Both the position numbers and the translations under genes were made by a program. This document shows positions 1,440 to 48,988 of a DNA stretch of 64,000 nt, piece after piece. Each line of letters starts with the position of its first letter. Position 1 is the first letter of the stretch. The notes beneath the pieces were generated by a model. It did not search any database, was not told where the DNA came from, and saw nothing but the letters and a program-made list of their open reading frames with translations. The DNA lies in assembly GCA_964451515.1 (NCBI GenBank), contig CAYVIJ010000001.1:212975-276974 (forward strand), given 5' to 3'. This stretch comes from an uncultured Phycisphaeraceae bacterium. GTDB taxonomy: Bacteria > Planctomycetota > Phycisphaerae > Phycisphaerales > UBA1924.

Positions 1440-2240
1440 TCAGCCGCGCCGGCGACGCAGCGCCGCCAAGGCCCCGGCCACGCCCAGGCAGACCACCGAG
1501 CCAGGCGTGGGGATGAACGTGTCGCTGAACGTGAACGTGTCGAAGGCAAAGACGTCGCTGTCGGGTGGACGCGTCAGATTCACCAGATCCACGCGCTGAA
1601 ATGGTGTCTCGGAGACGATGCCCCAGTAGAGAAAGTTCCCCTCGAGGTCGTCTCCCACCTCGGCGCCCGTCAGATCGGTGATGCGGATGGCGTCGGCCCC
1701 GTCCAGTGCGGACAGCGCCGTGTCAAATCGGATCTCGAGCACGTTCTGGACGTCGTTGACGTCGATCCCCGCGAAGCCGAACGCGCGCACGGGGCGATCG
1801 AAGGTGATCGACAGCGCTTCGCTGGGCTCGGCTTCGAGATACCACGATCCCTCCGCGCCGTATCGGCCCTGTCCGGTGGGGGTGTTGAAGGGCCCTTCCG
1901 GAAGTATTGGGCCTGCGGTCCCCTCCGCCTGAAAACGGGCTTCGGCGCCGCTGAAGGTGGCCGAGACGCCGTTCATGCTGGAAAAGAAGGGGCCCGGATC
2001 CTCATCGACCGAGCTGGTCTCAAAGCTCTCGAAGTCCGGATCAGGAACCAGGCTCAGGAACCGATCCCGGGCGTCGTTGGCGTTGACACGATCGGCGGGG
2101 GGGATGGGCGTCGTGTTCGGGTCCGCCGTAGCGTTCAGGTCGCGCCCGAAGAAAATCATGTCCGCGCGCGCATGCGAAGCCAGTCCGGCCGCGAGGAGGG
2201 CGCTGATCAGCAGATGACGCGTTCGCTCTCGAGATTCCAT
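1440..2240 (-). CDS. Secreted protein with an N-terminal signal peptide and a C-terminal PEP-CTERM-like sorting tail
   Basis: The N-terminus LLISALLAAGLASHARA is a signal peptide. The C-terminus is IPTPGSVVCLGVAGALAALRRRRG: a Pro-rich motif, then a hydrophobic helix, then an Arg cluster, at the very C-terminus. Confidence 0.6.
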   Translation of the reverse strand: MESRERTRHLLISALLAAGLASHARADMIFFGRDLNATADPNTTPIPPADRVNANDARDRFLSLVPDPDFESFETSSVDEDPGPFFSSMNGVSATFSGAEARFQAEGTAGPILPEGPFNTPTGQGRYGAEGSWYLEAEPSEALSITFDRPVRAFGFAGIDVNDVQNVLEIRFDTALSALDGADAIRITDLTGAEVGDDLEGNFLYWGIVSETPFQRVDLVNLTRPPDSDVFAFDTFTFSDTFIPTPGSVVCLGVAGALAALRRRRG

Positions 2241-13639: not shown

Positions 13640-13857
13640 CGGGCCGGGACCCGAACTTCCGCCCTAGGGTTGACGTCAGAAAACCAGTGCTCTCCGTCCC
13701 GATCATGCCGCCTGGCGAAGGGATGCGGTTCATGGCTTTCCTCGTTTGCCACCTTCCCCCGTCCTCGCTGACCCGCAGCGACGCTGGAACCGATGCTGTG
13801 CCAAGCGTTTGTGCGTTCGGGCGCCGCTGTGCGCCAACACGAAGCGGGAGAAGGTCC

Positions 13858-20954: not shown

Positions 20955-22320
20955 GCCCTTCATCGCGGGGTGGACCGACGTGACTCGACGCGCGCTCATC
21001 ATCGCCTTCTTCTTCCCGCCCGACGGCGGAGGCGGCAGCCAGCGCTGGGCGAAGTTCTGCAAGCGGCTGCCGGCTCTCGGGTGGCAGCCCACGGTGCTCA
21101 CGCGTGCGCAGCCCGCTTCCCGAACCCAGTGGGACCCGGAGGACGAGACCCTCCTCGAGGATGTCGCCGCCGCCCGGATCCACCGCCTGGAGCCCGCGCC
21201 GGCGGCGGCGGAAGTCAATCTAAAGCTCAGCGGCGATGTCGATCCCGCGTGGCTCCGCCAAACGCTGGCGGAGGCCGGGCGTCTGTGCGCCGAAGAGACG
21301 TTCGATGTCATCGTACTCACGGCCCCCCCGTACGATCTTGCGCGTCTGGCGCCGGTTCTTGCGGAGCAGATCAGGATTCCAGTCGTGCTCGATCTCCGGG
21401 ATCCGTGGGCCTTTGATGGCGGCCGCCTCTTCTCGAGCGCCGCCGCCTGGCGGCGCGAGCGCGACGTCATGATCCGCGCTCTGGAGCGATGCGAGGGCGT
21501 CATCTTCAACACACCCGAAGCCCGCGCCGCCATCGAACGCGGGATCGGCGCGCGGGCTCGACGAGCGGTCGTCATCCCCAATGGCTACGACGTCGACGAC
21601 TTCACCGGGCTCGAGCCCGCGCCCCGAAGCGACGACGCATTTCGGATCGCGCATCTGGGAACGCTGCACTCCCGAGCGCTGTATGAGCGCCGCGGACCGG
21701 CGGGATTCGTGCGCAGGATTCGCCGCCACCGTCCCCAGCGAGTCGCCCCGGCCGGACGCACGCTTCGCCCGCTGCTGAAGGCGATCCACGCGCTGCGGCG
21801 CGAGGGCGACCCACTCGGAGAGCGGGTTCGTGTACGGGTCCTCGGGCCGGTCGACGAGGCGACGGAGCGGTGCGTCCGCGATTCGCCCACGCCTGATGCG
21901 GTCGAGCTGATCGGTTATCTGCCCCACGCTGAGGCCCTTCGTGAAGCCGCCTCGGCCGACGCGCTCTTCCTGCCGCTCTACGGACTGCCCGCGGGCGAGC
22001 GCGCGCGGATCGTTCCCGGGAAGACCTATGAGTACCTGGCGCTAGGTCGGCCGATCCTCGCCTGCGTTCCGCCCGGCGACGCTCGGGAGCTGGTCGAGCG
22101 CACAGGGCGTGCGGCCTGCGCCGATCCCTGCGATCCACACGGGATCGCCCAGGCGATCCGAAGACTCCAGACGATGGAGGCGCCGCCGCCGGGGTGGCCT
22201 CCGGAGTGGATAAGCCGCTTCGAGCGGGGGGCGTTGACGCGCGAGCTGTCGGAGTTTCTCACGATGGTCGCCTCGGGTTCGCAAGCGCGTGAACGCAGCG
22301 AGAGGCTGGGGGCGGCATGA
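20923..22320 (+). CDS. GT-B glycosyltransferase (GT4-like); the start may instead be GTG 20980
   Basis: The C-terminal Glycos_transf_1 motif is FLPLYGLPAGERARIVPGKTYEYLALGRPILAC. Confidence 0.7.
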   Translation: MAGGSLPRKREPFIAGWTDVTRRALIIAFFFPPDGGGGSQRWAKFCKRLPALGWQPTVLTRAQPASRTQWDPEDETLLEDVAAARIHRLEPAPAAAEVNLKLSGDVDPAWLRQTLAEAGRLCAEETFDVIVLTAPPYDLARLAPVLAEQIRIPVVLDLRDPWAFDGGRLFSSAAAWRRERDVMIRALERCEGVIFNTPEARAAIERGIGARARRAVVIPNGYDVDDFTGLEPAPRSDDAFRIAHLGTLHSRALYERRGPAGFVRRIRRHRPQRVAPAGRTLRPLLKAIHALRREGDPLGERVRVRVLGPVDEATERCVRDSPTPDAVELIGYLPHAEALREAASADALFLPLYGLPAGERARIVPGKTYEYLALGRPILACVPPGDARELVERTGRAACADPCDPHGIAQAIRRLQTMEAPPPGWPPEWISRFERGALTRELSEFLTMVASGSQARERSERLGAA

Positions 22321-23663
22321 CCCAGGATCAAACGCTGCTTCATCCGCTGGGTCTCGTCTTCTTCGCGATCCTCGCCATCGCGACGCTGCTCGCTCCGCGG
22401 CGCTACGCGCTGCTCCCGATGCTGCTGATGGCGTGCTTTATCTCTCCCGCGCAGAAGCTCGCAATCGGCGGGCTCGACTTCAACATGCTCCGGCTTCTGG
22501 TGATCGTGGGCTGGACCCGCCTGCTGATGCGCCATGAGTTGCGCCCCATTCGCTGGACGGCGATCGACTTGCTTGTGATCAGCGTGCCCGTCGTCAGCGC
22601 GGTCGCCTACATCTCGCTCTGGCAGTCGAGCCAGGCGGCGATCTTCCAGTCAGGACAGCTCTTCGATGCGGTGGGCATGTATTTTCTCTTCCGCCATCTC
22701 CTCGCCTCTCTGGCGGATGTGCGCGCGCTGGCGACCTCGTTCGTCATCGTCAGCGTTCCATTTGCGGCGGTCGTCTCCGTGGAGCTGTTCACCGGACGGA
22801 ACATGTTCAGCGTCTTCGGCGGCGTCCCGGAGATGACGCTCGTTCGCGGCGGGCGGCGGCGCTGCCAGGGCGCGTTCCCGCATGCGATCATGATGGGCTC
22901 GTTCTGGGCGATCGCCCTGCCGCTAATGGCGAGCCTCTGGTGGTGGGACAAGCGGAAACTGGCCATGGTCGGGGTTCTGGCGGGGCTCTTCTGCGTCTTC
23001 GCGAGCGCCTCGAGCACGCCCGCGATGGGCGTGATCTTCGCCGCGTTCGCCGCCGGATTCTTCCCGTTTCGCCATCGCCTTCGGGCGATCCGCTGGGGGT
23101 TCGCCGCGTCGCTGATCCTTCTGCATTTCGTGATGAAAGGGCCGGTGTGGTCGCTGCTCGCCAAGGCGAACCTCTTCAGCGGCTCGACCGGATGGCATCG
23201 CTTCCATCTTCTCGACAAGGGGATCCGCAACGTTTCCGAATGGGCGCTCAACGGCACGCAGTCCACCGCCCACTGGGGCTACGGTCTCAGCGACGTCACG
23301 AATCAATATCTCGCCGTCGGCGTCGAGGGCGGGATCGTCGCCCTCGCTCTGTTCATCGCGCTGCTCGCCTTCTGCTACCGCGCCGCAGGGATGGCGATGA
23401 AGGCGTGGGAGCCGTCGCGTCCCGCGCTCATCACCGCATACTGCCTGGGCGTGATTCTCTTCACGCACACGATGATGTTCTTCGCCGTGTCCTATTTCGG
23501 ACAGATGATTATGCTCTGGACGCTCACCGTGGCTCTCTCCGCCACATTCCAGAATCTCGCGACCCAGAGCGTGGCCGCGCGCGCGCCCCGTCGCCGCCGC
23601 GCGGCGGCAGTGCGCGCGAGGCGAGCCGCCGGATCGCGGGCTCTGCCGGGGGCGACGGCGTGA
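22317..23663 (+). CDS. wzy: O-antigen ligase/Wzy-like polysaccharide polymerase
   Basis: The body has about 11 TM helices. A periplasmic loop carries HWGYGLSDVTNQYLAVGVEGGIVALALF, which is Wzy_C-like. Confidence 0.7.
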   Translation: MTQDQTLLHPLGLVFFAILAIATLLAPRRYALLPMLLMACFISPAQKLAIGGLDFNMLRLLVIVGWTRLLMRHELRPIRWTAIDLLVISVPVVSAVAYISLWQSSQAAIFQSGQLFDAVGMYFLFRHLLASLADVRALATSFVIVSVPFAAVVSVELFTGRNMFSVFGGVPEMTLVRGGRRRCQGAFPHAIMMGSFWAIALPLMASLWWWDKRKLAMVGVLAGLFCVFASASSTPAMGVIFAAFAAGFFPFRHRLRAIRWGFAASLILLHFVMKGPVWSLLAKANLFSGSTGWHRFHLLDKGIRNVSEWALNGTQSTAHWGYGLSDVTNQYLAVGVEGGIVALALFIALLAFCYRAAGMAMKAWEPSRPALITAYCLGVILFTHTMMFFAVSYFGQMIMLWTLTVALSATFQNLATQSVAARAPRRRRAAAVRARRAAGSRALPGATA

Positions 23664-30492: not shown

Positions 30493-31440
30493 ATGATTGC
30501 ATCGGACCACCGCTCCCGTTCGCGCATCGCCGCCGCCATCATCCTTGCGGGAGGACTGCGCCCCTCGCCTCTGGCGCGCGCCGCGGCTCGCTCGGTGCTC
30601 GACCTGCATTTGACCGAGTCGGGAACCGTTCTGGACGCCTGGATCGCCCATGTCGAGGCGCTTTTGCGCGCGCGCCGGGGCGTCATCTCGATTCGCGTCC
30701 TTTGCGATAAATCGGCCCCCGAGCCCAATCAGCCGACCACGCCGGGCGAACGCGCCTCCGTTGAGTTCGAGCGCGAAGCCTCCGCCTATCGCGGGCCCGC
30801 CGGGGCGCTCCGAGACGCCTGCGCACGCTACGACGCCGACGATCAGCTCCTGATTATCGAGGGAGCGCGATGGGCGACGGGGAGCCTTCTGGAGCTCGCC
30901 GACGCCCACAAGCGGCGCGCCGCCGACATCACCGTCGGTTGCGATCAATCCGACCGTCCCACGGGGATCTACCTGCTTCGCGCCGCCGTCCTCCAGGATC
31001 TCGTCCCATCACGGGGCTTCATGGACCTCAAGGAGCAGCTCCTGGCGAGGGCGATGGAGGCGGGGCTGGGGATCTGGGTCCACCGATCTCCCGACGGCTG
31101 TTCGATACCGCTTCGCACACGCTCGCAATTCCTCGAAGCAGCCGCGGCCGCGACGCGCATCGAGCTGGGCGCGGGTGGGGGAGCGTCCGAGAATCCTGGC
31201 CGCCCGGCCTTCCGGGTGATCACTCCGGGCGCTCGTGTCGCGCCGGACTCCGTGATCGCCGACGCCGTTGTGATGCCGGATGCGGAAGTGGGTTCAGGCG
31301 CGGTCGTGGCGAGGTCGATTGTCTGTCCGGGAGCGCGCGTGGCCTCCGGAACCGAGATTGTCGATCAGGTGGTCAGGACGGGCGGCGTAGAATCGGGCGA
31401 CGATTCTTCGGACCCCCGGCGGTGGAAGCACGCGGTATGA
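30493..31440 (+). CDS. Sugar-phosphate nucleotidyltransferase-like protein with a C-terminal left-handed beta-helix; the N-terminal G-x-G-T-R-L motif is degenerate
   Basis: AIILAGGLRPSPL replaces the canonical LAGGxGTRL. Hexapeptide repeats are at the C-terminus. Confidence 0.45.
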   Translation: MIASDHRSRSRIAAAIILAGGLRPSPLARAAARSVLDLHLTESGTVLDAWIAHVEALLRARRGVISIRVLCDKSAPEPNQPTTPGERASVEFEREASAYRGPAGALRDACARYDADDQLLIIEGARWATGSLLELADAHKRRAADITVGCDQSDRPTGIYLLRAAVLQDLVPSRGFMDLKEQLLARAMEAGLGIWVHRSPDGCSIPLRTRSQFLEAAAAATRIELGAGGGASENPGRPAFRVITPGARVAPDSVIADAVVMPDAEVGSGAVVARSIVCPGARVASGTEIVDQVVRTGGVESGDDSSDPRRWKHAV

Positions 31441-32318
31441 ACAGCCGCCGATCGTGGAAGTTCAGCGATGGTCTGCTTCTGGCGGCTCTCACGGGCCTGG
31501 CTGTCGCTGCGACCTATGGCGTCTGGCAGGACATCTTTTCGATCGGTTGGCGCAGCGATGAGCAGTCGCACATCCTGCTGACGCCGATCATCGTGCTCTG
31601 GCTTATCTGGGTTCGACGCGAGCGCCTGCGATATGCGAAACCGTCGTGGTCGATGCTGGGGCCTCTGCTCGTCGGCGTCGGCTGGTTCTTTGCGCTTTGG
31701 GGGTTCCAGGGATGGGGCGCTGACGACAGCCTTCAGCTCTTCTGGCATTTCGGCGCCTTGCTCATCGTCTTCGGCGCCGTCGTGACCGTCATCGGACTCG
31801 ATCTTGTCAGAGCGTTCTTTCCGGCGGCGCTGGCGCTGCTGTTCCTGTTGCCGGTGCCCGGGCGCGTGCGCACGAACGTGTCGATCCCCCTTCAGGAATA
31901 CACGGCGATCGTGACGGAGTGGATGCTCGACATCTTCGGCGTCGCCGTGGTGCGATCCGGCTCCGTGCTGAGCCTCAACGGTCAGGACATCGCCGTCGCG
32001 GAGGCGTGCAACGGGATGCGCATGGTCGCGGCGCTTGGGCTCATCTCCTTCGCTTTCGTCTTCTCGACGCCCATGCGGCACAGCGTCCGCCTCGCCATTC
32101 TGGCGATCTCGCCTCTGATCGCGCTGATCGTCAATGTGATCCGCCTGACGCCGACGGTGCTGCTCTACGGCTACAGCGATCCCGATTTCGCCGACGCGTT
32201 CCATGACTTCAGCGGGTGGGCGATGCTCGGCGTGGCGCTCGGGTTGCTTTGGGGTTTGCTCGCCCTGCTGCGCTGGATCGAAGTCCCGATCACCCCGTAC
32301 GCTGTGTCGGAGGCCTGA
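31437..32318 (+). CDS. xrt: Exosortase (EpsH/Xrt family)
   Basis: The start overlaps the upstream stop (ATGA). There are 8 TM helices. VAEACNGMRMV matches the exosortase Cys motif, and NVIRLT matches the conserved Arg motif. Confidence 0.8.
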   Translation: MNSRRSWKFSDGLLLAALTGLAVAATYGVWQDIFSIGWRSDEQSHILLTPIIVLWLIWVRRERLRYAKPSWSMLGPLLVGVGWFFALWGFQGWGADDSLQLFWHFGALLIVFGAVVTVIGLDLVRAFFPAALALLFLLPVPGRVRTNVSIPLQEYTAIVTEWMLDIFGVAVVRSGSVLSLNGQDIAVAEACNGMRMVAALGLISFAFVFSTPMRHSVRLAILAISPLIALIVNVIRLTPTVLLYGYSDPDFADAFHDFSGWAMLGVALGLLWGLLALLRWIEVPITPYAVSEA

Positions 32319-32320
32319 CG

Positions 32321-33010
32321 ATGGCCAGATTATCCGCGCTCCACGCCATCAACCGCGCCGCGCCCGTGGCCGCCGCCGTTATCCTGACCGCGCTTCTGGC
32401 GGTTGGGGGGATCGACGCGAAGACCCCTGAGGGCGTGCAGGAGTACCACGCCGCGGTCCGGATGGCTGTCGATCGAATTCCCTACCGCATCGGACCATGG
32501 GTGGCCCAGGATGTCGAGACGCCCCCCGCCGCCGTCAAGCTCCTGAAGCCCAACACGCTCATGCAGCGGCGTTATACGGACCCGGCGACGGGTGAGAGCT
32601 TCAACCTGCTGCTCGTTCACTGCGGCGACATGCGGGACATGCAGGGGCATTATCCGCCAATCTGCTATCCAGCTCACGGGTGGACGCACCTTGAATCGCG
32701 AATGACGTACTTCGACGTGGGGGCGGACCGTCTGCCCGCCCGGTCGTATCGGTTTGAACGGGAGGTCCAAGGCTCGCAGCAGAGAATGGCCGTCGTCGGT
32801 TTTTTCATCCTGCCCGACGGCACGCTCGCGGCCGATATCAAGGATCTGAACCGTCGGGCCACGAACCGGTCGCTCTCGGGACTGGGCGCGGCCCAGGTGC
32901 AGCTTGTCGTGGACGAGGCCATGCCCGTGGAGCGCAGGCGGGAGATTCTGGAGCAACTCGGGCGGGCCATCGAGCCGACGATCCGGGTGATCTCGCGGAG
33001 CGAGTCCTGA
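32321..33010 (+). CDS. epsI: Exosortase-associated EpsI family protein
   Basis: It lies immediately downstream of the exosortase. It has a signal anchor and a periplasmic domain (DUF3485-like, HCGDMRDMQGHYPPICYPAHGW). Confidence 0.7.
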   Translation: MARLSALHAINRAAPVAAAVILTALLAVGGIDAKTPEGVQEYHAAVRMAVDRIPYRIGPWVAQDVETPPAAVKLLKPNTLMQRRYTDPATGESFNLLLVHCGDMRDMQGHYPPICYPAHGWTHLESRMTYFDVGADRLPARSYRFEREVQGSQQRMAVVGFFILPDGTLAADIKDLNRRATNRSLSGLGAAQVQLVVDEAMPVERRREILEQLGRAIEPTIRVISRSES

Positions 33011-33044: not shown

Positions 33045-35300
33045 GTGAGTGATCCCACGAGCCGACAGCACGATCCTATTCTCGAGGACGAGGCGTACGG
33101 AGCCCTTCCCGGGGGCGAGCAGCGCCTGGAGAATCCGCTGCTGATGATCCATCGTCGGCTGCGGGGCCGCTATCCGCTGGGCGTGGCGCTGGCGATTCTG
33201 CTCGCGATTCCGGGCGCGTATGTGGGATGGATTCTCAAGCAGCCCGAGTTCATCAGCACGGGCATCATTCGCGTAGCGCCGGCGCTCCAGCCCATCCTCT
33301 ACACCGACAGCCCGGAAAATGACGCGCCGCCGATGTGGGACTCATGGGTCGAGGCGCAGCGCTCGTTTGTCAAGACGCGGCGCGTCCTGAATCGCGCCGT
33401 GGATCATCCCGACATGCGGACCATCAACTGGCCGACCGGGCATGAGGGCGTCGCGGAGCTCGAGAAGGCGCTCACCGTCCGGCGCGGTCGCGGGGAGCAG
33501 CTCATCTACGTCGAGGCGGCGCATGTCGACCCCGACATGGCGAAGACGGCGGTCAACACCGTGCTTGACGCCTATATCGAGATCTACGGTGAGATCAACA
33601 ACATCTCGACGAACGTCACCATCCGTCAGCTCCAGGAGCGTGAGCGCGAGCTCGAGATGACGCTCGCCAGCCTCAAACGCACGGTGCAGGATCTCTCCGA
33701 TGACTACGGCCCCACCATGCTCCGGCAGATCCACGCGTCGCGCGTCGCGGAGCTTGGCGACGTGGAGCGTCTGGTCGCGCAGCTCGAGGAGGCTGTGAAG
33801 GAGGCCCGCGTCGCGATGGAGGGACAGCCCTCGGGCCCGCTGGACCGCTCCGCGCTGATCGAGCGACTGGTCGCGCAGGACGAGCAGCTCGCGGAGCTGA
33901 CAGAGCGCGAGGAGACGATCCTGGCGCGCATCGAAGCGATGAGCGGGCAGTACGGACCGAAGCATCGCGCGATGAAGTCAATGAACGATGAGTTGGAGCT
34001 GGTTCGCATACAGATCCGCAACCGTGTTGATGAGCTTTCGGACCAGGTGAATCAACTCCCCGCGGACGCCAACCTTCCGCTCCGTGAGCAGTTCACGCTT
34101 GACGAACTCGAGCGGCGGCTGGTACGCGAGCGGCGCCGCCTCGAATCGCTCGAGGAGGAATCGGCCCGACTCGGCTCCAAGCTCGCGCAGATCGATTCGC
34201 TCCAGAGTGAGATCCGCCTGATCCAGGAGAAGCTCACCGCCACGAAGATCCGTCTCGATCAGATCCGTGTGGAGAGCGCTCAGGGCAGCACGGAGCGCGT
34301 CACCGTGCCGCAGCGCGGCGAGCGCCCCGTCACCCCGCAGGATCGCCGTCCCGTCCTCGCCGCCGCCGGTGGCTTCGGCGGGTTCATGGCCGGCTTCGGG
34401 CTGGTCTTTCTGCTCGGGTTCTTCGATCCGTCGTATCGCTACATCGACGACATCGAGCGCGACACGCTCGGCGCTTCCCTTCTCGGCACGCTCCCCGACC
34501 TGGGAAGCCGCTCCCCCGAGCACGACGAGCTCGCCGCGCTCAGCGTGCATCATCTGCGCAACATGCTGCACCTCAAGCTCGCCAAGAACAACGGCGACGC
34601 CCGCGTCTTCACCATCACCAGCGCCGCCGCCGGCGATGGCAAGACCAGCCTGGCCCTGGCCCTGGCTATGTCTTACGCCGTCTCGGGTCGGCGGACGCTG
34701 CTCATCGACGCCGACCTCGTCGGCCGCGGCGTCACACGCGAGCTCGAGATGCGCCGCGCGCCGGGCCTGCGCGAGGCGATGCGACAGATCGACCCGGCGG
34801 CGCAGATCCACGACACGAGCATCGAGCGACTCGTTGTCATGCCAGTTGGTCAGGGCGAGGACTTCGATGCGCGGCATCTCTCCCACGAGTCTGTCCACGC
34901 GCTGCTGCGAACGCTGCGCGGTCGGTACGATGCGATCATCATCGACACGGGCCCGCTCCTCGGCAGCCTCGAGGCGAATCTCGCCTGCTCCAACTCCGAC
35001 GGCGTCATCCTCGCCGTCTCGCGCGGGCAGAGCCATCGGCTGGTGGAGGCGTGCATCGAGCGTCTGAACCGAATGGGCGCCTCGTGCGCGGGCCTCGTCT
35101 TCAACCGCGCCGCGGTCGACGACTTTGAGAACAGCGTCAGCGCGACGTCGCTCTTCTCCCAGTCGGTGCGCACATCGCCCTCCGACGACGATCGCGCGGA
35201 GGATGCTGGCCGTCCGATCCGCGTCGCGGGCGGAGCGCTGGGACGCGCCGTGGTCGGGCTGGGCGAAACCGACGAGGAGCCGCAACGAGTCGCATCGTGA
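33045..35300 (+). CDS. wzc: Polysaccharide chain-length determinant fused to a P-loop ATPase/BY-kinase-like domain (Wzc/EpsG-like)
   Basis: It starts with GTG. It has two TM helices flanking a long coiled-coil. Walker A is SAAAGDGKTS, Walker B is LLIDAD, and A' is IIIDTGP. Confidence 0.85.
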   Translation: MSDPTSRQHDPILEDEAYGALPGGEQRLENPLLMIHRRLRGRYPLGVALAILLAIPGAYVGWILKQPEFISTGIIRVAPALQPILYTDSPENDAPPMWDSWVEAQRSFVKTRRVLNRAVDHPDMRTINWPTGHEGVAELEKALTVRRGRGEQLIYVEAAHVDPDMAKTAVNTVLDAYIEIYGEINNISTNVTIRQLQERERELEMTLASLKRTVQDLSDDYGPTMLRQIHASRVAELGDVERLVAQLEEAVKEARVAMEGQPSGPLDRSALIERLVAQDEQLAELTEREETILARIEAMSGQYGPKHRAMKSMNDELELVRIQIRNRVDELSDQVNQLPADANLPLREQFTLDELERRLVRERRRLESLEEESARLGSKLAQIDSLQSEIRLIQEKLTATKIRLDQIRVESAQGSTERVTVPQRGERPVTPQDRRPVLAAAGGFGGFMAGFGLVFLLGFFDPSYRYIDDIERDTLGASLLGTLPDLGSRSPEHDELAALSVHHLRNMLHLKLAKNNGDARVFTITSAAAGDGKTSLALALAMSYAVSGRRTLLIDADLVGRGVTRELEMRRAPGLREAMRQIDPAAQIHDTSIERLVVMPVGQGEDFDARHLSHESVHALLRTLRGRYDAIIIDTGPLLGSLEANLACSNSDGVILAVSRGQSHRLVEACIERLNRMGASCAGLVFNRAAVDDFENSVSATSLFSQSVRTSPSDDDRAEDAGRPIRVAGGALGRAVVGLGETDEEPQRVAS

Positions 35301-35303
35301 GCC

Positions 35304-36758
35304 GTGAGCAGATCAGCCGTGCAACAAGAACGCGCTCAGCCTCGGATCTCGCGGGCCGCGGACGCCGAACGCCTTTGGGGCCTCGACATTCGCGATCTGC
35401 ATGATCGCCGATGGGCGACGCGGGGCGTGCAGGTCGTCCGCCCGCAGGGCGCGCCCCCGGACCCCAAAGGCCCTGACCTCTTTCTGCTCGTGGATCGCCA
35501 CGACCTGCTCGACTTCTCCATCGAGCCGCATGTCAAACGATTGAACTGGCTGCGCTCGGGCTTGATGCGGCTCCGCGTCTCCGATGCGCGCAGCCGATAC
35601 GAAGAGCGCGTGCTCGCCGACGACGAGGGCCGCTTCCAGGGCTTCCGGCGCGTCTACGACTCGCGCCTGGGCGGCGTGCGCCGAACCGCCATCACTGGCA
35701 GTCGCCGCCTCGCCGAGCGATGGCGGCAGACCGACGGTGGCTTCGCCTCCTGGCGCGCCCTCGCCGGCGGACGCCGAGGCGACAGCCAGGCCCCACGCTC
35801 CGCCTCCGGGGTGGCGAAGGGCGTCGTCTTCTCGGCGGCTTCCGACGTCGCCTCCGCCCGTTTTCTGGAGCATCTTCAGCGCACCTGGTCGGCGCCGTCG
35901 GCCGCGATCGACGGCGTCTACGCCTTTCGTCCCGGCGTGCTGCTGCACGAATCGGTGGCGCTGCCCGAGCGCGTCCGTCTTGTCGGGCCCGTCTGGATCG
36001 GCGCCGGCGCCCGTCTGCAACCCGGGCAGGTGCTCATCGGGCCGCGCATGCTGCCGGACGACGAGCACGCCGCCCCTGAGCAGCGCCCCGTCGACTGGGG
36101 CTCCTTGAGTCAGCCCGGATGGCGCCTGGCGCCGCGCTCTCGCGGCTGGCGCTTCCGCTCGACGAAACGCCTCTTCGACATCGTCTTCAGCGCGAGCGTC
36201 CTGGTCGGCACGCTTCCGCTCTATCCCTTCGTGATCATGGCCATCTTCATGGAGGACGGCTGGCCGCCCTTCTTTGCGCACCGCCGCCAGACGATCCGGG
36301 GGCGCGAGTTTCCCTGCCTGAAGTTCCGCACCATGTTCAAGAACGCGGAGCAGATGAAGGCGGAGATTGCGGCGCGCAACCAGGCGGACGGTCCTCAGTT
36401 CTTCATTGACGACGACCCCCGCATCCTGCGCTGTGGCAAGCTCCTCCGTCGGTTCCAGATCGATGAGTTGCCGCAGTTCTGGAATGTGCTGCTGGGCCAC
36501 ATGAGCGTCGTGGGGCCGCGTCCCAGCCCGGATAAGGAGAATCAGTTCTGTCCCTCCTGGCGCGAGGGGCGTCTGAGCGTCCGTCCGGGCGTGACCGGAT
36601 TGTGGCAGGTGCGACGCACCAGGCAGCCCGAGACCGACTTTCAGGAGTGGATCCGATACGATCTGGAATACGTCCAGCATGAGAGCTGGCGGCTCGATCT
36701 CTGGGTCATCCTGAAGACGATCGAGAAAGTCTTCCGTGGTGAGGATCCCTCGACATGA
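35304..36758 (+). CDS. Polyprenyl-phosphate sugar-phosphate transferase (bacterial sugar transferase, WbaP/PglC-like catalytic domain) with a roughly 290-aa N-terminal extension
   Basis: The C-terminal 200 aa carry KFRTM, DELPQFWNVLLGHMSVVGPRP, PGVTGLWQ and a single re-entrant helix. Confidence 0.8.
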   Translation: MSRSAVQQERAQPRISRAADAERLWGLDIRDLHDRRWATRGVQVVRPQGAPPDPKGPDLFLLVDRHDLLDFSIEPHVKRLNWLRSGLMRLRVSDARSRYEERVLADDEGRFQGFRRVYDSRLGGVRRTAITGSRRLAERWRQTDGGFASWRALAGGRRGDSQAPRSASGVAKGVVFSAASDVASARFLEHLQRTWSAPSAAIDGVYAFRPGVLLHESVALPERVRLVGPVWIGAGARLQPGQVLIGPRMLPDDEHAAPEQRPVDWGSLSQPGWRLAPRSRGWRFRSTKRLFDIVFSASVLVGTLPLYPFVIMAIFMEDGWPPFFAHRRQTIRGREFPCLKFRTMFKNAEQMKAEIAARNQADGPQFFIDDDPRILRCGKLLRRFQIDELPQFWNVLLGHMSVVGPRPSPDKENQFCPSWREGRLSVRPGVTGLWQVRRTRQPETDFQEWIRYDLEYVQHESWRLDLWVILKTIEKVFRGEDPST

Positions 36759-39700
36759 CCAATCGCGCCAAAAAGCGCCTGACGCTCCTCCTCGTCGTCT
36801 TTGCGGCGCTTGGGCTTCTCGTCGCCGGCGGCGCCGTGATCCGCGCTGTCCAGCAGCAGCGCATCACCGAGCGCGCGCTCGAGCGCGGCCTCGCGGCGCT
36901 TGAATCGGGGGATGACCGCGGGGTCGTCCGTCATCTCGGCGTCTACCTGAACCGGGCGGAGAACGCGGGAGAGGAGGTCGATCCCGAGCTTTGGATCAAT
37001 TGGACGGACGCCCGCTGGGCGGTCAAGGACGACGAGGGCCAGCACATCGCCCAGGCCATCGTCGGGGCGCGCCGGGCGCGCGATCTGCTGCCCAGCGACC
37101 CCCGCCCCTACGAGCAGCTCATCGAGATCTACAGCCGCATCGGGCAATACACCGAGCTGGCGGACGCCGCTGACCGGCTTCTTGAGATCGATCCCGACAA
37201 CTTCCGGGCTCGCGCCGCGAAGATCGCCAGCGCCCGCGCCACCGGCGATCTCGACGCCGCCATCGAGGAAGCGCGCCTGCTCGTCGACGCCCACCCCGAC
37301 AGCGTTGAGGCTCACCAGCTTCTGCTTTTTCTGCTCGATGAGGCGGGGCGTCCTCCGGAAGAGCTAGTGGGGATCATGGAGGCCGCCGCTGAGGCGCATC
37401 CGGACAACCCGGACTTCGAGCTGCTGCGCGCGCGGACGCATGTGCTCCTCGACGATCGCGATGCCGCCCGGCGCTCCGCCGAGCGTGCCCTCGCGATGAT
37501 CGAGGAGGCTCCTGACGCCGACATCGGGGTCCTCCTCCGCGTGCTCGATTACCTGGGCATGGACGAGGAGGCGCGACGCTTGCTGGAGACGCGCGTTGAG
37601 CTTGCGGAGCCAGGCGATCCGATCTTCGTGGTCGCCGCCGAGCGAGCGTGGAAGGCTGGCGAGACCGATGAGGCGCGCGCGATCCTGGACGCCGGCGCTC
37701 CGACGCTCGATGACGCTCCCTCCGCAATGCTGGGCTGGATCGCACTTTTGAACGCCGGCGCCGATGGCGACGCCGAGCGCTTCGAGGCCGCCCGGGCTCG
37801 CCTAGACGAGGTGGCGACAGCCGAGTCGGCGGATTGGCTCGCCCTCGTCGATGCGCGCGAGGCGCTCGAGGACGCCCGTCCCTCCGACGCCCGTGAGATC
37901 GTTGGCGAGCGCGCGCCAGCGGGCGGTCCCGAGACGCGCCCGCTGATGCAATACGCCCTCGCTCGCGCCGCAAAGACGCTGGGGGAGAGGCGTCGCGCTA
38001 TTGAACTGCTCGAGCCGCTTGCGGCGCGCGAGCCGCGCTGGGTCATCCTCGCCGTCGATCTCGCCGAGTTGTTGCTCGGGGAGGATCGCCTGACGCAAGC
38101 CTTTGGCTACGCCATCCGGGCCTATCGGGCGGCGCCGCGCCCGGGCGTGGTCATCCCGACGCTCGCGGAAGTCGCGGCGCGCCTTCTCGAGTCCGGACGC
38201 GCAACGCCCGCGCAACGGGACCTGGCGATCGAGGTTCTGACAGAAGCGGCGGAGAAGCTCTCCGATTCCGGCGAAGCGCTGGCGCTCGCCGCCCGCGGCC
38301 TCGCGGCCACCGGGCGGTACAACGAGGCGCGCGCTCTCACGCAGCGGATCGCCGAGCAGCGGCGACAGATTACCGCGGACTCGTACGCCCGTCTCGCGGA
38401 GTTGTCGCGCCGGCGCCAGTGGGGGCTTGAGTCAGCGCTCACGGAGGCCGTCCGGGCCGCCTCGCCCGAGGATCCCGCGACGCTCTACGCCCTCGCGATC
38501 GAGGCAGCCAATGCGGGACGCCCAGAGGATGGCGAGCGCCTGCTCGACGACGCCCTCGGGCGCGCCGGCGAGAGCGCCTCGCTCGAGCTGGCGATCCGTC
38601 GCGCGCTCTATCTGGACGCAATCGGCGATCCGGAGGCGCGGGAGACGCTGCTCCAACTCGCGACCCAGAACGAGCGCTCGGTTCCCGCGCAACTCGCCGT
38701 CCTTGAAGCTTCCTCGACTTGGGTGGATGAGCCGGGCATCGCCGCCGCCATTGAGCGCCTGCGGGCCTTGACTGGCGATGAGGGCGTCGCGTGGAAGCTG
38801 CATGAGGCTCGCCGCCTGCTCACGTTCGAGCCCTCGGAGGAGAACGCGGCGCGCGTCGAACTCCTCCTCGCCGAGATCATCAACAACGATCGGCGGTCTG
38901 CGGAGGCCCGGCGCATCGCCGCCGCCGCCCGTCTGGAGCTTGGCGATGTCGAGACGGCGACGCGCTACCTCCGCGAGGCGGTCGCCGCGCGCCCGGGCGA
39001 TGCTCGCCTGCAACTCGAGCTCGTGAATCTCCTGCGTGAAGCGGGCGATACGGAGGCCGTCATACGCCAGCTCCGTGAGTTCGCCGCCATCGGTGATCTT
39101 TCGCGCGATCTTCGGCAGGTGCGCGGACGGCTGCTTATGGACTACGGGCTCTGGGATCCGGCGCTCGAGGATCTCTCCGCCGTCGCCGAGGATGGCGACT
39201 GGCGCGCCTCGCTCGATCTCGCGAGACTGCACGCTCGCCGGGGAGAGACAGCTCGCGCGCGCGCCATCTACAACAGTCTGCTCACGGAGCCTGATCCCGA
39301 CCCGGCGGCGCTGGAAGCCGCCGCGAACTTCTTTGGGGGTCTGGGCGAGGTTGATCGGGGACAGGCGATCCTGATGCGCCTTCCGGAGGAAGGTGATCCC
39401 CCCAGAGTTCGGCGCATCGCCTCGTACCTGGCGCGATATGGCCTCTCATCCGAGGCGGAGCGCCTCTTCCGACGCCATGCGGAGGAGGACGGGACGCCCG
39501 AGGCGTGGAACGCGCTGGCGCGGTTCCTTGTCCGTCAGGGCGCGATCGAGGACGCACGCTCGGCGTTGGAGCAAGGCTTGGCGCTGGCGCCGGAGGATCA
39601 CGATCTGATCGCGACGGAGAACGTGATCCGCCTGCGCATGGGGCTGCCCGTCGATCCCGACGCCCTCGCGGACGCCATGGCGGTGGGGGGGGTGGATCCG

Positions 39701-40942
39701 GACGATCCCGCCGCCATCGCGTTGCGGAAGGCGATCGCCTCCCTCTCCGAAGCGCCGGACGATCGCTCGGCCTACATCGAGGCTCTGCGCGAGGTGACGG
39801 AGACGTACCCCTCCTTTTATCCCGCGTGGGATCTGCTGGTGAAAGCTCTTCGGTCGGTCGCAAAGCTCGATGAGGCGATCTCCGTCGCGCAGCGGGCGGC
39901 CGCCGCTCTGCCCACCGATCCGCGCCCCGCGCGTCTGCATGCGGAGGCCTTGATCGCCTCAGGCGACGCCCAGCGCGCGATCGTGGCCGCTCGGAGCTGG
40001 CGCGATCGCTCGCGGGACAACCCGCTCGAAGCGGATGTGGCGATCGCCTCGCTGGAGCTGTCGCTCAATGAGCCCGAGCAGGCTCTCGAGCAGCTCCAGC
40101 CGCACCGCGAGCGGATCGTCTCCCAGGGAGACGCCCATCCCGATCGACTGGCGCTGCTGGCCACGGCTCTCGCTCGCGCCGGGCAGGCGGAGAGGGCGCA
40201 CGAGCTGCTCTGGCCTCGAGCGCAGCAGGATCCCCGATGGGCGGAGCGCTATTTCAACGTCGCGCTCTCGCAGCGCGACACGCCCTCCACCTTCGTGCGC
40301 TGGCTGTCACGCATCGAGCCTGCGATTGTCTCGACGCCGATGGGCCGGCTTCGGATCGGGCAGGCGTGGTACGAGTTCGGCCTCATTCACGAATCCGCCG
40401 AGGCGCATCGCCGAGCCATGGACATTCTGGAGCCCTCGCTGGACGATGAGCAGATGGCGCCGGTCGCCGCCAAGCTCATCGCCGGCTCCGCCGAGCAGAT
40501 CGGCGAGCATGTGGTCGCGGAGAGGCACTATCGCCTTGCGATCCAGCTCGATCCGGACGACCCGGCGGTGATGAACAATCTCGCCTATCTCATCCTGCGA
40601 ACGAATGGCTCCGGCGAGGAGGCTTTGTCGCTCGCCGAGCGGGCGGTGGAGGCCGCGCCGGATGTGCCCGTCTTTGTCGACACCCGCGCCTCAGCGCTGC
40701 TCGCACTGGGACGGCTGGAGGAGGCCCGTGAGGAGTTTCGGCGCGGGCTCGAGCTCGATCCGGGAGATGTCGACCTTCTCCTCGGGCTGGCGGAGACGGA
40801 GCTGCGCCTCGGCGCCGTCGAGGCCGCTACGGTCGCGCTGGAGCGGGCGGCGGCGCGGGGTCCGAGAAACGCGGCGCAGCGCGAAGAGCTCGCCGATCTC
40901 GGGAGCCGGCTTGAGAAGGCTCGCGCACGGTCCGACGAATGA
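36755..40942 (+). CDS. Very large TPR-repeat protein (PEP-CTERM-system PrsT-like scaffold), 1395 aa
   Basis: The start overlaps the upstream stop (ATGA). It has an N-terminal signal anchor. Dozens of 34-residue A/L/R-rich TPR-like repeats run its whole length. Confidence 0.8.
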   Translation: MTNRAKKRLTLLLVVFAALGLLVAGGAVIRAVQQQRITERALERGLAALESGDDRGVVRHLGVYLNRAENAGEEVDPELWINWTDARWAVKDDEGQHIAQAIVGARRARDLLPSDPRPYEQLIEIYSRIGQYTELADAADRLLEIDPDNFRARAAKIASARATGDLDAAIEEARLLVDAHPDSVEAHQLLLFLLDEAGRPPEELVGIMEAAAEAHPDNPDFELLRARTHVLLDDRDAARRSAERALAMIEEAPDADIGVLLRVLDYLGMDEEARRLLETRVELAEPGDPIFVVAAERAWKAGETDEARAILDAGAPTLDDAPSAMLGWIALLNAGADGDAERFEAARARLDEVATAESADWLALVDAREALEDARPSDAREIVGERAPAGGPETRPLMQYALARAAKTLGERRRAIELLEPLAAREPRWVILAVDLAELLLGEDRLTQAFGYAIRAYRAAPRPGVVIPTLAEVAARLLESGRATPAQRDLAIEVLTEAAEKLSDSGEALALAARGLAATGRYNEARALTQRIAEQRRQITADSYARLAELSRRRQWGLESALTEAVRAASPEDPATLYALAIEAANAGRPEDGERLLDDALGRAGESASLELAIRRALYLDAIGDPEARETLLQLATQNERSVPAQLAVLEASSTWVDEPGIAAAIERLRALTGDEGVAWKLHEARRLLTFEPSEENAARVELLLAEIINNDRRSAEARRIAAAARLELGDVETATRYLREAVAARPGDARLQLELVNLLREAGDTEAVIRQLREFAAIGDLSRDLRQVRGRLLMDYGLWDPALEDLSAVAEDGDWRASLDLARLHARRGETARARAIYNSLLTEPDPDPAALEAAANFFGGLGEVDRGQAILMRLPEEGDPPRVRRIASYLARYGLSSEAERLFRRHAEEDGTPEAWNALARFLVRQGAIEDARSALEQGLALAPEDHDLIATENVIRLRMGLPVDPDALADAMAVGGVDPDDPAAIALRKAIASLSEAPDDRSAYIEALREVTETYPSFYPAWDLLVKALRSVAKLDEAISVAQRAAAALPTDPRPARLHAEALIASGDAQRAIVAARSWRDRSRDNPLEADVAIASLELSLNEPEQALEQLQPHRERIVSQGDAHPDRLALLATALARAGQAERAHELLWPRAQQDPRWAERYFNVALSQRDTPSTFVRWLSRIEPAIVSTPMGRLRIGQAWYEFGLIHESAEAHRRAMDILEPSLDDEQMAPVAAKLIAGSAEQIGEHVVAERHYRLAIQLDPDDPAVMNNLAYLILRTNGSGEEALSLAERAVEAAPDVPVFVDTRASALLALGRLEEAREEFRRGLELDPGDVDLLLGLAETELRLGAVEAATVALERAAARGPRNAAQREELADLGSRLEKARARSDE

Positions 40943-40996
40943 ATGCGATGCGCGCTCGCGGCGCTCGCGCCTGAACCGCAGACCGGAGGTCCGATC

Positions 40997-41776
40997 ATGA
41001 AGGGCGTCATTCTCGCAGGCGGCATGGGCACGCGGCTCAACCCGCTCACGCTCGTCACCAATAAGCACCTGCTCCCCGTCTACGACCGTCCCATGATCAT
41101 GTATCCCATTCAGACGCTGCTGAATGCGGGCGTCCGCGAGATACTCATCGTCACGGGAGGCGAGCACGCGGGCGACTTCCTCAAGCTTCTCGGCAACGGC
41201 AAGAGTCTGGGGATCCGCGAGCTGCACTACACCTACCAGGAGGGCAACGGGGGCATCGCCGACGCCCTCAAGCTCGCCGAGGACTTCGCCGACGGCGGAA
41301 AACTCATCGTCATGCTGGGCGACAACATCATCGAGCGCAACATCAACAAGGCGGTCGGCGATTTCTTCTGCCAGCCCTCCGGCGCCAAGATCATGCTCAA
41401 GGAAGTCGATGATCCGGAGCGCTTCGGCGTCGCGGTCGTGGAGGAGGGACGCGTGGCGCAGATCCTCGAAAAGCCCGAGAATCCGCCGAGCAACTTGGCC
41501 GTCACGGGCGTCTACATGTACGACAACGATGTCTTCGACATCGCCTCAACGCTCGAGCCCTCGGCCCGCGGCGAGCTCGAGATTACGGACGTCAACAACG
41601 CCTACATCGAGCGCGGCGACTTGACCTACGACGTCCTGGAAGGCTGGTGGACCGACGCAGGCACCTTCGAGAGCCTGCATCGCGCGGCGACCCGTGTCGC
41701 CCAGGGCGGCGCCAACCATGTCGCGGCGGGCGAGCCCGGGGCCGAGAGCCCCAAGGCCGCCAGCGCCGCCGGCTGA
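40997..41776 (+). CDS. rmlA: Glucose-1-phosphate nucleotidyltransferase (RmlA-like, short form)
   Basis: The start was trimmed to ATG 40997, which has a GGAGG RBS. The N-terminus is MKGVILAGGMGTRLNPLT, and GDNII follows. Confidence 0.8.
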   Translation: MKGVILAGGMGTRLNPLTLVTNKHLLPVYDRPMIMYPIQTLLNAGVREILIVTGGEHAGDFLKLLGNGKSLGIRELHYTYQEGNGGIADALKLAEDFADGGKLIVMLGDNIIERNINKAVGDFFCQPSGAKIMLKEVDDPERFGVAVVEEGRVAQILEKPENPPSNLAVTGVYMYDNDVFDIASTLEPSARGELEITDVNNAYIERGDLTYDVLEGWWTDAGTFESLHRAATRVAQGGANHVAAGEPGAESPKAASAAG

Positions 41777-41936: not shown

Positions 41937-42689
41937 ATGAAGAATGGAACACTGTTCATTGCGGGCGTCGCCGCCGCAGCCTGCACCGCTGGCGCCGCCC
42001 AGGCCGCCATCGCCGTAGTCGATGGGCTCGGAGGTCCGCTCGGACTTCAGTCCGGGTCGATGCCGAGTCTATTCGGCGCGTCGTCGCCGAGCTTCACCAA
42101 CACCGCCCTCGCCTCTATTCACACCGAGCTCAACGCCGACGGCGTCGCCACCGACGGCAAGGTCACGGGCATGCTTGTCGAGACGGGCGACGCCGGCCTC
42201 GCGTGGGTCGTGCTGATCGACGACGAAACGGCGCCGGGTGGTTTCAAGACGCTGGATTCCAGCATCGCCTTCGGAACGCAGGCGTCCTCCGACAAGGTCG
42301 AGTTCATCAACGACTCCGGCGACAACACGCCCGTCCAGGACCCCGGAACCGGCTTCAAGAGCGTCAACGGCGGCTTCGAGTGGGATTCCAATTCCAAGGG
42401 CGATGCCTTCGGTTGGGCGAACCTCGAAACCGGCGACTTCATGACCTTCTCCTTCCAGCGCATCTTCGACGACCTGCCGACGTTCCCAGGTCTTGACAGC
42501 GAGGACACATTCCAGTTCGTCACATGGGGCGACGGCGCCTGGGAGCTGGCTGACGGCTTTGGCGAGTTCACCCCCAACAACCAGTTCTCTTACAGCGTCA
42601 CCATCGCCGTGCCGCTGCCGACCGGAGCGGGTCTCGGGCTTGCGGGCCTCGCGGGCTTCGCCGTCATCCGCCGCCGGCGCACGCTCTGA
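41937..42689 (+). CDS. Secreted PEP-CTERM-like anchored protein
   Basis: It has a signal peptide. The C-terminal tail is VPLPTGAGLGLAGLAGFAVIRRRRTL. A GGGAGAG RBS is upstream. Confidence 0.65.
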   Translation: MKNGTLFIAGVAAAACTAGAAQAAIAVVDGLGGPLGLQSGSMPSLFGASSPSFTNTALASIHTELNADGVATDGKVTGMLVETGDAGLAWVVLIDDETAPGGFKTLDSSIAFGTQASSDKVEFINDSGDNTPVQDPGTGFKSVNGGFEWDSNSKGDAFGWANLETGDFMTFSFQRIFDDLPTFPGLDSEDTFQFVTWGDGAWELADGFGEFTPNNQFSYSVTIAVPLPTGAGLGLAGLAGFAVIRRRRTL

Positions 42690-48909: not shown

Positions 48910-48988
48910 AGACCGCGAGTCGTTGACACCCTCCGGGGGCAGGTCTAGCCTGCCTGTTCAGGCCGCCGAGGAGTCCAACCCCCGGTCT

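Follow-up and report, generated by a model that had tools for sequence, protein, structure and literature searches.

The question raised by this locus is whether a membrane protein, encoded within an exopolysaccharide (EPS) gene array of an uncultured Phycisphaeraceae bacterium, is an exosortase with its catalytic residues in place and, if so, to which protein-sorting system it belongs. Exosortases are membrane enzymes that presumably cleave and sort proteins of the cell surface. The DNA analyzed is a single stretch of 64,000 nucleotides (positions 212,975 to 276,974 of contig CAYVIJ010000001.1, assembly GCA_964451515.1), called here the window and numbered from its first letter; the gene in question lies at 31437..32318 on the plus strand. 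That its product is an EpsH-family exosortase is confirmed by a match far beyond chance. The fuller answer, to which we give a probability of about 0.8, is that it is a catalytically intact exosortase of an unnamed subfamily centred on the Phycisphaerae, encoded in a conserved cassette of EPS loci together with a substrate that carries a P-L-P type signal, and that it acts by a sortase-like scheme.

Family assignment, catalytic motifs and topology

The gene and its three motifs are the following:

31437..32318, plus strand: exosortase gene, 293 aa, eight transmembrane (TM) segments predicted, unnamed subfamily centred on Phycisphaerae
31995..32027, plus strand: nucleophile motif VAEACNGMRMV, residues 187-197, containing the C-x-G that is invariant in the family
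32133..32150, plus strand: NVIRLT, residues 233-238, containing the family invariants Asn233 and Arg236
32202..32216, plus strand: HDFSG, residues 256-260, containing the family invariants His256 and Gly260

Read directly in the sequence, the gene runs from the ATG at 31437-31439 to the TGA stop at 32316-32318 and encodes 293 residues, one fewer than the 294 given in the initial annotation. A longer frame from the ATG at 30870 (30870-32318, plus strand) was rejected, since the alignment of homologues and the public gene calls favour the start at 31437. The family assignment made at that stage stands, as the curated cut-offs of two hidden Markov models were passed: PF09721 (Exosortase_EpsH) matched with 179.2 bits (E = 1.2e-52; gathering score 25.7) and TIGR02602 (8TM_EpsH) with 129 bits (cut-off 105.55). 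Public records label the homologues, 367 of which were found by word index, as “exosortase/archaeosortase family protein”. In the NCBIfam scan none of the named Xrt subtype models reached its cut-off for the window protein: XrtA (TIGR03109), the second-best NCBIfam model, scored 125.5 bits against 208; XrtD (TIGR04152), the third-best exosortase model, 113.7 against 400; XrtW 97.5 against 425; and XrtB 79 against 275, while the archaeosortase signature TIGR04178 gave a weak match of 58 bits. Among 30 clade members the best E-values were 9.2e-40 for XrtA and 3.7e-36 for XrtD. Of 48 longer relatives that have EpsI as a fused domain, 23 had XrtD as their top model, and the lowest XrtD E-value in the set was 8.5e-50. 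The curated cut-offs thus ruled out XrtA, XrtD and the other named subtypes for the window protein, the 30 clade members and the 48 fused relatives. No paralogue, i.e., no second exosortase, was found by tblastn in the window or in any fetched locus, and tblastn against a plasmid collection gave four weak matches only, with no named XrtA reference among them.

The invariants that define the exosortase family are Cys-Xaa-Gly, Asn-Xaa-Xaa-Arg as well as His-Xaa-Xaa-Xaa-Gly (PMC1569441). All six residues are present in the window protein, as C191-x-G193 (Cys191 being the TGC at 32007-32009), N233-V-I-R236 and H256-D-F-S-G260, the last of these absent from the initial annotation. The six are invariant in an alignment of 30 sequences, relatives that are 55-67% identical to the window exosortase, so that the Cys motif and the Arg of NVIRLT, which had been pointed out before, do fall in conserved columns; the full set is retained in 105 of 151 representative relatives. 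That the six residues stay unchanged in the clade, where identity has fallen to about 47-66%, speaks for selection on catalysis.

The residue that follows the nucleophile is Asn192 (AAC at 32010-32012), where the Ser of the usual ACSG motif had been described as replaced. The whole segment A188-V197 (AEACNGMRMV) is invariant in 30/30 clade members. When we took the 150 best representatives, which are 50%-identity clusters from a library of 1.8 billion proteins, the position after the Cys was occupied by Asn in 101, Ser in 12, Asp in 7 and Ala in 3. A search seeded with Ser-bearing relatives recovered AEACSGIRSL in 42 of 44 sequences, a sample biased by its seed, and these sequences come from other Planctomycetota, Acidobacteriota and Verrucomicrobiota. 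The contrast with distant exosortases, which mostly carry AEACSGIRSL, is therefore real but lineage-wide rather than peculiar to this gene, and a substitution unique to the window gene is ruled out by the clade and by the 101 clusters. As judged from these alignments, Asn after Cys marks a large lineage, and the family definition (Cys-Xaa-Gly) allows any residue there.

In the AlphaFold2 model of the exosortase (pLDDT 79) helices span residues 9-39, 45-65, 74-90, 98-126, 128-137, 188-208, 215-246 and 249-280, and residues 142-186 form a predicted extracytoplasmic insert made of a helix and beta-hairpins. Cys191 opens helix 188-208, Arg236 is found towards the end of 215-246 and His256 towards the start of 249-280. 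By hydropathy and loop charge, the basic loops MNSRRSWK, RRERLRYAK and PMRHSVR lie on one side, and the acidic loops together with Cys191, Arg236 and His256 on the opposite one. The protein is thus predicted to have eight TM segments, with the Cys, Arg and His at the outer ends of TM6 to TM8. For the family, the ends of three successive helices, close to the membrane's outer face, have been predicted as the site of these three residues (PMC1569441). Modelled helices, hydropathy and loop charges agree with one another in this prediction, and the eight-TM topology proposed initially is compatible with an exosortase.

The cassette and its nucleotidyltransferase-like member

The exosortase gene is flanked by two tightly joined neighbours and followed by a series of EPS genes:

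30493..31440, plus strand: nucleotidyltransferase-like gene, 315 aa, predicted cytoplasmic, nucleotidyltransferase domain plus left-handed beta-helix, degenerate loop
32321..33010, plus strand: EpsI-family gene, 229 aa, N-terminal signal anchor, predicted periplasmic domain with HYPPICYPAHGW
33045..35300, plus strand: Wzc-like co-polymerase fused to tyrosine autokinase, 751 aa, syntenic in 79/81 loci
35304..36758, plus strand: polyprenyl glycosylphosphotransferase (initiating sugar transferase), start possibly 35319, syntenic in 72/81
36755..40942, plus strand: giant PrsT-like TPR protein, 1395 aa, many TPR Pfam matches, syntenic in 67/81
40943..41776, plus strand: RmlA-like sugar-1-phosphate nucleotidyltransferase, canonical, PF00483 200 bits, TIGR01207 236.6 bits

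A scan of one genome per species of the GTDB gave 320 loci with relatives of the exosortase, 80 of which were fetched; nearly all of these are labelled Phycisphaerae, Phycisphaerales, Tepidisphaerales, Mucisphaera or Planctomycetota. When the window proteins were compared by tblastn with 81 loci, a fixed order emerged: nucleotidyltransferase-like gene, exosortase, EpsI, Wzc-like, sugar-phosphate transferase and giant TPR, present in 79, 81, 81, 79, 72 and 67 of the loci, respectively, the missing genes mostly explained by contig ends. The RmlA-like gene follows the TPR gene in about 17 loci and is an optional member.

EpsI comes directly after the exosortase in 81/81 loci, with a gap of -4 to +11 nt in most of them. 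In the window its ATG at 32321 follows a 2-nt spacer, being the third base after the exosortase stop, and a longer frame from the GTG at 32216 (32216-33010, plus strand) was discarded because the alignment of homologues and the public gene calls favour 32321. The protein has a single hydrophobic segment (residues about 9-35) and matches PF11984 (EpsI/DUF3485) with 47.2 bits over a cut-off of 26.1; TIGR02914 stayed below its cut-off (29.3 against 42.8 bits) and the B-type and V-type EpsI models far below theirs. The signal-anchored EpsI homologue that had been reported directly downstream is thus there. A relative with both domains in one chain (P0122) has an exosortase domain 51% identical to that of the window and a fused EpsI domain 42% identical to the window EpsI (E 1e-38), the two EpsI sequences having in common the motif HYPPxCYPAHGW / HxPPxCYxxxGW.

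Upstream, the TGA of the nucleotidyltransferase-like gene (31438-31440) overlaps the ATG of the exosortase in a shared ATGA, as had been read before. Sequence models recognized only a C-terminal hexapeptide-repeat domain in the product of this upstream gene, and the Pfam scan gave no match to PF00483. Its AlphaFold2 model (pLDDT 90, pTM 0.89), compared with the PDB by Foldseek, matched GMPPA/GMPPB, VTC1, ADP-glucose pyrophosphorylase and eIF2B (E 2e-13 to 1e-10, TM-score about 0.6, identity 13-19%), and the profile of the family weakly matched GMPPA, GMPPB, eIF2B gamma and ADP-glucose pyrophosphorylases in the same database. In the profile alignment to the RmlA-like enzyme of the window, GGMGTRLNPL corresponds to GGL--RPSPL, a two-residue deletion that leaves the loop GGL-x-PSPL in place of GGxGTRLxPL, and the positions aligned with the catalytic Arg and Lys are variable across the family. 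The homologues, all annotated as hypothetical protein, are 29-47% identical across the clade and keep invariant residues of their own, including G101, G104, D108, G175, D178, E181 and Q182, while R100 and K180 vary little or not at all; identity and invariants together ruled out a decaying pseudogene. The alignments point instead to a conserved protein, probably non-catalytic, and not a relic. The “degenerate nucleotidyltransferase” of the initial annotation was right as to fold and loop and misleading only in suggesting decay, since the gene is a conserved, clade-specific partner.

Among the sugar-1-phosphate nucleotidyltransferases there are non-catalytic paralogues with a regulatory role, such as GMPPA, eIF2B gamma/epsilon and GalF. 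The window protein has the same two-domain fold and has likewise lost the catalytic loop; however, at 13-19% identity there is no detectable orthology with them, and it is paired with a membrane protease, the exosortase, and not with a catalytic paralogue as they are. To our knowledge a gene of this kind has not been described as an accessory of XrtA.

The alternative that deserves most attention here is that the ATGA overlap and the tight spacing reflect nothing other than ordinary operon compaction in a GC-rich genome, with no functional coupling between the nucleotidyltransferase-like protein and the exosortase. Four-base gene overlaps are common in bacteria, and the locus has many overlapping or abutting pairs (26352/26365, 27385/27388, 36755/36758 and 40942/40943). 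Against this, in 79 of 81 loci the nucleotidyltransferase-like gene immediately precedes the exosortase, and 49 of 78 show the 4-nt overlap. The pair is still together where EpsI and the TPR gene are missing (L084, L085) or the nucleophile Cys has been lost (L082); other Planctomycetota, in their Ser-type exosortase loci (L086, L087), have no such gene. We consider plain compaction unlikely on these grounds, without dismissing it.

In L088, a fused Asn-type relative, a glycosyltransferase takes the place of the nucleotidyltransferase-like gene upstream of the exosortase. Two divergent cassettes, one on an ENA metagenome contig (L084:9060-14824) and one on a TARA ocean contig (L085:6093-11857), have the order nucleotidyltransferase-like gene, exosortase (P0238, motif SCDG), Wzc-like and sugar-phosphate transferase, with neither EpsI nor TPR gene, and in both the stop of the first gene still overlaps the start of the second. 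Since these two lack EpsI, the pairing of the nucleotidyltransferase-like gene with the exosortase seems more deeply conserved than that of exosortase and EpsI.

Candidate substrates, proposed mechanism and alternatives

Two proteins of the window had been named as PEP-CTERM proteins:

41937..42689, plus strand: candidate cognate substrate, secreted, 250 aa, PLP-type signal, ending ...IAVPLPTGAGLGLAGLAGFAVIRRRRTL
1440..2240, minus strand: second candidate substrate, 266 aa, PTP variant, ending ...FIPTPGSVVCLGVAGALAALRRRRG

Both have the tripartite C-terminus (motif, hydrophobic helix, basic cluster) expected from that name, as seen in the tails ...AVPLPTGAGLGLAGLAGFAVIRRRRTL and ...VPLPTGAGLGLAGLAGFAVIRRRRTL of the first and ...IPTPGSVVCLGVAGALAALRRRRG of the second. 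Their motifs, however, are P-L-P and P-T-P, and neither matched the PEP-CTERM models TIGR02595/PF07589 at E 0.01, so that of the name only the architecture can be kept. The protein at 1440..2240 matched no family model; that at 41937..42689 reached 21.5 bits with the VPLPA-CTERM model TIGR03370 (cut-off 25.35).

We scanned all loci for open reading frames (ORFs) ending in P-x-P, a hydrophobic stretch and a basic tail, and found 19 matches in related loci in addition to the two window proteins. Each of the 19 is on the plus strand, right behind the TPR gene, and 1440..2240 is the only one of the two window proteins with a different location. The ORF after the TPR gene (or after RmlA where present) was then taken in the 29 loci in which it is complete, the downstream ORF running past the fetched stretch in many others, and in 25 of the 29 it bears the signal, in a protein of 110-310 aa with a signal-peptide-like N-terminus. 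Aligned on the motif, the signals give the consensus L-[VT]-x-[VI]-P-L-P-[ST]-[AG]-A-G-L...RRRR, and the 26 motifs counted are PLP in 21, PTP in four, PAP in one and PEP in none. TIGR02595 matched none of these neighbouring signal proteins, and TIGR03370 matched only 2/23 substrates at E 0.05. The P-T-P variant is found as well in cassette-linked substrates of L022, L053 and L074, with further such proteins in L059 and L063. A weak similarity to the floc protein PepA (best E 7e-7) or to the EDSAP-1 family is seen in some passenger domains; Aquincola depends on both PepA and the TPR protein PrsT to form flocs (PMC9850573).

A protein near the L087 cassette ends in ...PTPEPVSVFVWASLLGLVAANRR, a PEP-type signal. 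It is a single case, consistent with a pairing of C-S-G with PEP and of C-N-G with PLP.

The sortase-like scheme that we favour follows the one proposed for the family (PMC1569441; bioRxiv 10.1101/2023.06.07.544157). The exosortase would be a polytopic membrane cysteine endopeptidase/transpeptidase of the EpsH family, working in a Wzx/Wzy-type EPS locus. The secreted protein would be exported by Sec, and its C-terminal signal of [VI]-P-[L/T]-P, helix and RRRR would hold it in the cytoplasmic membrane; on the membrane's outer side the exosortase would recognize P-L-P, and there Cys191, with Arg236 and His256, would attack the signal at or near this motif. Helix and basic tail would be removed and the protein passed to an acceptor on the cell surface or in the EPS matrix. 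EpsI, membrane-anchored and periplasmic, and fused to the exosortase in close relatives, would act as an obligate partner. The overlap of its stop with the exosortase start would keep synthesis of the nucleotidyltransferase-like protein matched to that of the exosortase, and this protein would most likely be a non-catalytic subunit for ligand binding or scaffolding. In this scheme we infer the cleavage chemistry, the acceptor, the roles of EpsI and of the nucleotidyltransferase-like protein, and any physical complex. A Cys/Arg/His triad and subfamily-specific signals have been described (bioRxiv 10.1101/2023.06.07.544157), and in ArtA of Haloferax volcanii, which acts on PGF-CTERM proteins, mutagenesis of the conserved residues, described in the same work, supports a cysteine-protease mechanism; removal of the C-terminal helix coupled to lipid attachment was shown experimentally (summarized in bioRxiv 10.1101/2023.06.07.544157). 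ArtA is a homologous membrane enzyme, although archaeal, with another signal and a lipid acceptor, and the window exosortase matches it at the level of the TIGR04178 signature only (58 bits).

Several points weigh against the reading of a catalytically intact exosortase with P-L-P substrates. The pattern used for the GTDB scan included ACNGM, which biases the loci to Asn-bearing members; the substrate search required P-x-P, so signals of other kinds would have been missed; and it covered 20-kb neighbourhoods. When the exosortase sequence was searched against the PDB, nothing matched at E up to 1, and Foldseek found no counterpart of its model in the PDB at E <= 0.001. The role assigned to the nucleotidyltransferase-like protein is drawn from synteny and fold. 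Finally, the 150 nearest clusters include about 20 whose full-length, exosortase-like proteins (about 290-300 aa) lack the nucleophile Cys, which may mean that some lineages have a non-thiol function.

These Cys-less relatives (P0171, P0173, P0175, P0176, P0189, P0198, P0221, P0230, P0242, P0247, P0256 and others) have Ser, Thr, Asn or Ala at the Cys position, some of them lack the His too, and they are 35-48% identical to Tepidisphaerales-like members of the clade. In P0175 (L082:1353-2228) the Cys is replaced by Ser, Arg and His are retained, and the gene comes directly after a nucleotidyltransferase-like one. All of them come from short metagenome contigs, in which a sequencing error is possible. 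From their sequences they may be serine-type or non-catalytic exosortases.

They bear on a second alternative, namely that the exosortase of the window serves polysaccharide export as a membrane component, either non-catalytic or acting in another way, and that the neighbouring signal proteins are not its substrates. Cleavage in this clade is a prediction from sequence, the remaining cassette genes all concern polysaccharide synthesis, and a Cys-less full-length relative that keeps its nucleotidyltransferase-like neighbour (L082) hints at a thiol-independent function. Nevertheless, six motif residues that stay invariant over such divergence, and a signal-bearing gene that is positionally conserved in 25 of the 29 assessable loci, are difficult to reconcile with this proposal, which we hold to be quite improbable.

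The likeness to the XrtA/PEP-CTERM system of Proteobacteria (Haft 2006, PMC1569441) is considerable: the same Pfam family, the same three invariant motifs, eight TM segments, an EPS locus with a chain-length determinant/tyrosine kinase, an initiating sugar transferase and a large PrsT-like TPR protein, and secreted partners with a signal of motif, helix and basic tail, the window substrate being weakly PepA-like. In addition, XrtA is the second-best NCBIfam model for the window protein, and distant counterparts of the XrtA-system markers are present in the cassette (PrsT 167, Tyr kinase 84, chain-length determinant 42.7 and EpsB_2 144.9 bits). Still, a plain XrtA orthologue serving canonical PEP-CTERM proteins is very improbable, as the scores of XrtA and of these markers are all well under their cut-offs (208, 312, 230.65, 278.85 and 393.35, respectively), no clade member did better than the E-value of 9.2e-40, and Glu was found between the prolines in 0/26 neighbouring signals. 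The window system differs besides in its nucleophile motif, AEACNGMRM and not AEACSGIRS, in signals that have Leu or Thr where PEP has Glu and on which TIGR02595 failed, in the fusion of co-polymerase and kinase, and in the extra clade-specific nucleotidyltransferase-like partner, which was not among the XrtA-system markers matching cassette proteins in the NCBIfam scans. No PrsK, PrsR or sigma-54 elements turned up, in scans that were not aimed at them.

XrtD occurs mainly in Alphaproteobacteria, and a split XrtD, i.e., the VPLPA-CTERM-specific exosortase whose EpsI domain is normally fused, is equally improbable: the V-P-L-P-T/S-G/A signal is nearly that of VPLPA-CTERM, EpsI is functionally linked in both (fused in XrtD, adjacent in the window) and XrtD is the third-best exosortase model and the best for 23/48 fused relatives, but the window exosortase reaches 113.7 of the 400 bits, the best E-values are about 8.5e-50 (fused relative) and 3.7e-36 (clade member), the signal of 41937..42689 is under its cut-off (21.5 against 25.35 bits) with 2/23 substrates matching even at E 0.05, EpsI is a separate gene and the lineage is Planctomycetota.

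Wider locus, distribution and meaning

The EPS locus extends from about 13.7 to 42.7 kb, almost entirely on the plus strand, and holds a Wzx flippase, several glycosyltransferases, a UDP-sugar dehydrogenase, a methyltransferase and a sulfotransferase. Among the cassette genes, the glycosylphosphotransferase matched PF02397 (193.8 bits), TIGR03025 (232 bits) and, below the cut-off of 393.35, EpsB_2 TIGR03013 (144.9 bits), its gene call in L001 being of 479 aa; the Wzc-like protein scored 90.5 bits with TIGR01007, below cut-off, 84 with the XrtA-associated Tyr kinase TIGR03018 (cut-off 230.65) and 42.7 with the chain-length determinant TIGR03007 (cut-off 278.85); and the giant TPR protein scored 167 with the PrsT model TIGR02917 (cut-off 312). 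A promoter scan of 29.9-43.2 kb found none, and terminator-like sites numbered 8 against 5.2 +/- 2.4 expected, an uninformative outcome.

Other genes of the window were noted alongside. The sulfotransferase-family gene (PF13469, PF00685) lies at 19241-20203 (plus strand), among the glycosyltransferases, and with such a gene in the locus the exopolysaccharide may be sulfated. The plus-strand array opens with a 930-aa protein (13687-16479, plus strand) that has no family match, only a sub-threshold dockerin, and a 448-aa protein at 22317-23663 (plus strand) has no match in Pfam or NCBIfam. Outside the EPS locus there are a SPFH/Band 7 protein (46282-47949, plus strand), a Ser/Thr protein kinase with a C-terminal hydrophobic tail (48764-50353, plus strand) and a GGDEF diguanylate cyclase (59586-60947, minus strand), the last of which could bear on the regulation of matrix production.

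As to distribution, the two Ser-type loci (L086, L087), of which one is from Pseudobythopirellula maris and one from a metagenome-assembled genome (MAG), carry exosortase, EpsI, Wzc-like and giant TPR genes arranged in other ways, L087 with the transferase as well, and both have a NusG-like gene near the cassette (spans noted in these loci: L087:6889-7866, minus strand, L087:9068-9772 and L086:19410-19970). A Phycisphaerae-type cassette with 60% identity was found in a MAG labelled Vicinamibacteraceae, of the Acidobacteriota (L004, WYBR01000042.1), and others in MAGs labelled Planctomycetaceae (L011, L047 and L073). Mis-binning or mislabelling is a more likely explanation of these odd labels than lateral transfer. 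The cassette is present in at least one complete genome whose organism does not bear a MAG label (CP159477, locus L021).

The enzyme family, the adjacency of EpsI and the EPS context are textbook for exosortases, and in that respect the finding of the initial annotation is correct but ordinary. A literature search for a Phycisphaerae exosortase system found nothing specific, and no description of the Phycisphaerae cassette, of a PLP signal with a fixed substrate or of the pseudo-nucleotidyltransferase partner was found in the libraries and papers searched. It is tempting to go further and see here a distinct, unnamed system, in which recognition of the PLP signal is tied to the clade-invariant C-N-G-M-R-M (C-S-G-I-R-S in PEP-type systems), a PepA-like protein encoded at the cassette's end is the one dedicated substrate, the translationally coupled pseudo-nucleotidyltransferase is an obligate cytoplasmic partner that senses sugars, and the Cys-less sister group, with Ser, Thr or Asn as the replacement, is serine-type or non-catalytic; taken as a whole we find this rather doubtful and offer it tentatively. 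If it were true, the pseudo-nucleotidyltransferase would sense or bind an activated sugar and so tie protein sorting to polysaccharide synthesis. If the wider readings fail, the locus is a correctly identified, ordinary exosortase/EpsI pair.

Exosortases are widespread and biochemically barely characterized, and the pairings of subfamilies with signals have so far come from comparative genomics. This clade offers a clean test bed for them, with a single cassette, one positionally fixed predicted substrate and clear motif differences (P-L-P versus P-E-P, C-N-G versus C-S-G). The nucleotidyltransferase-like partner, in turn, for which no counterpart in other exosortase systems is known, could help to explain how the sorting of proteins and the assembly of exopolysaccharide are coordinated in the Planctomycetota, a phylum that is important in marine and sediment particle-attached communities.

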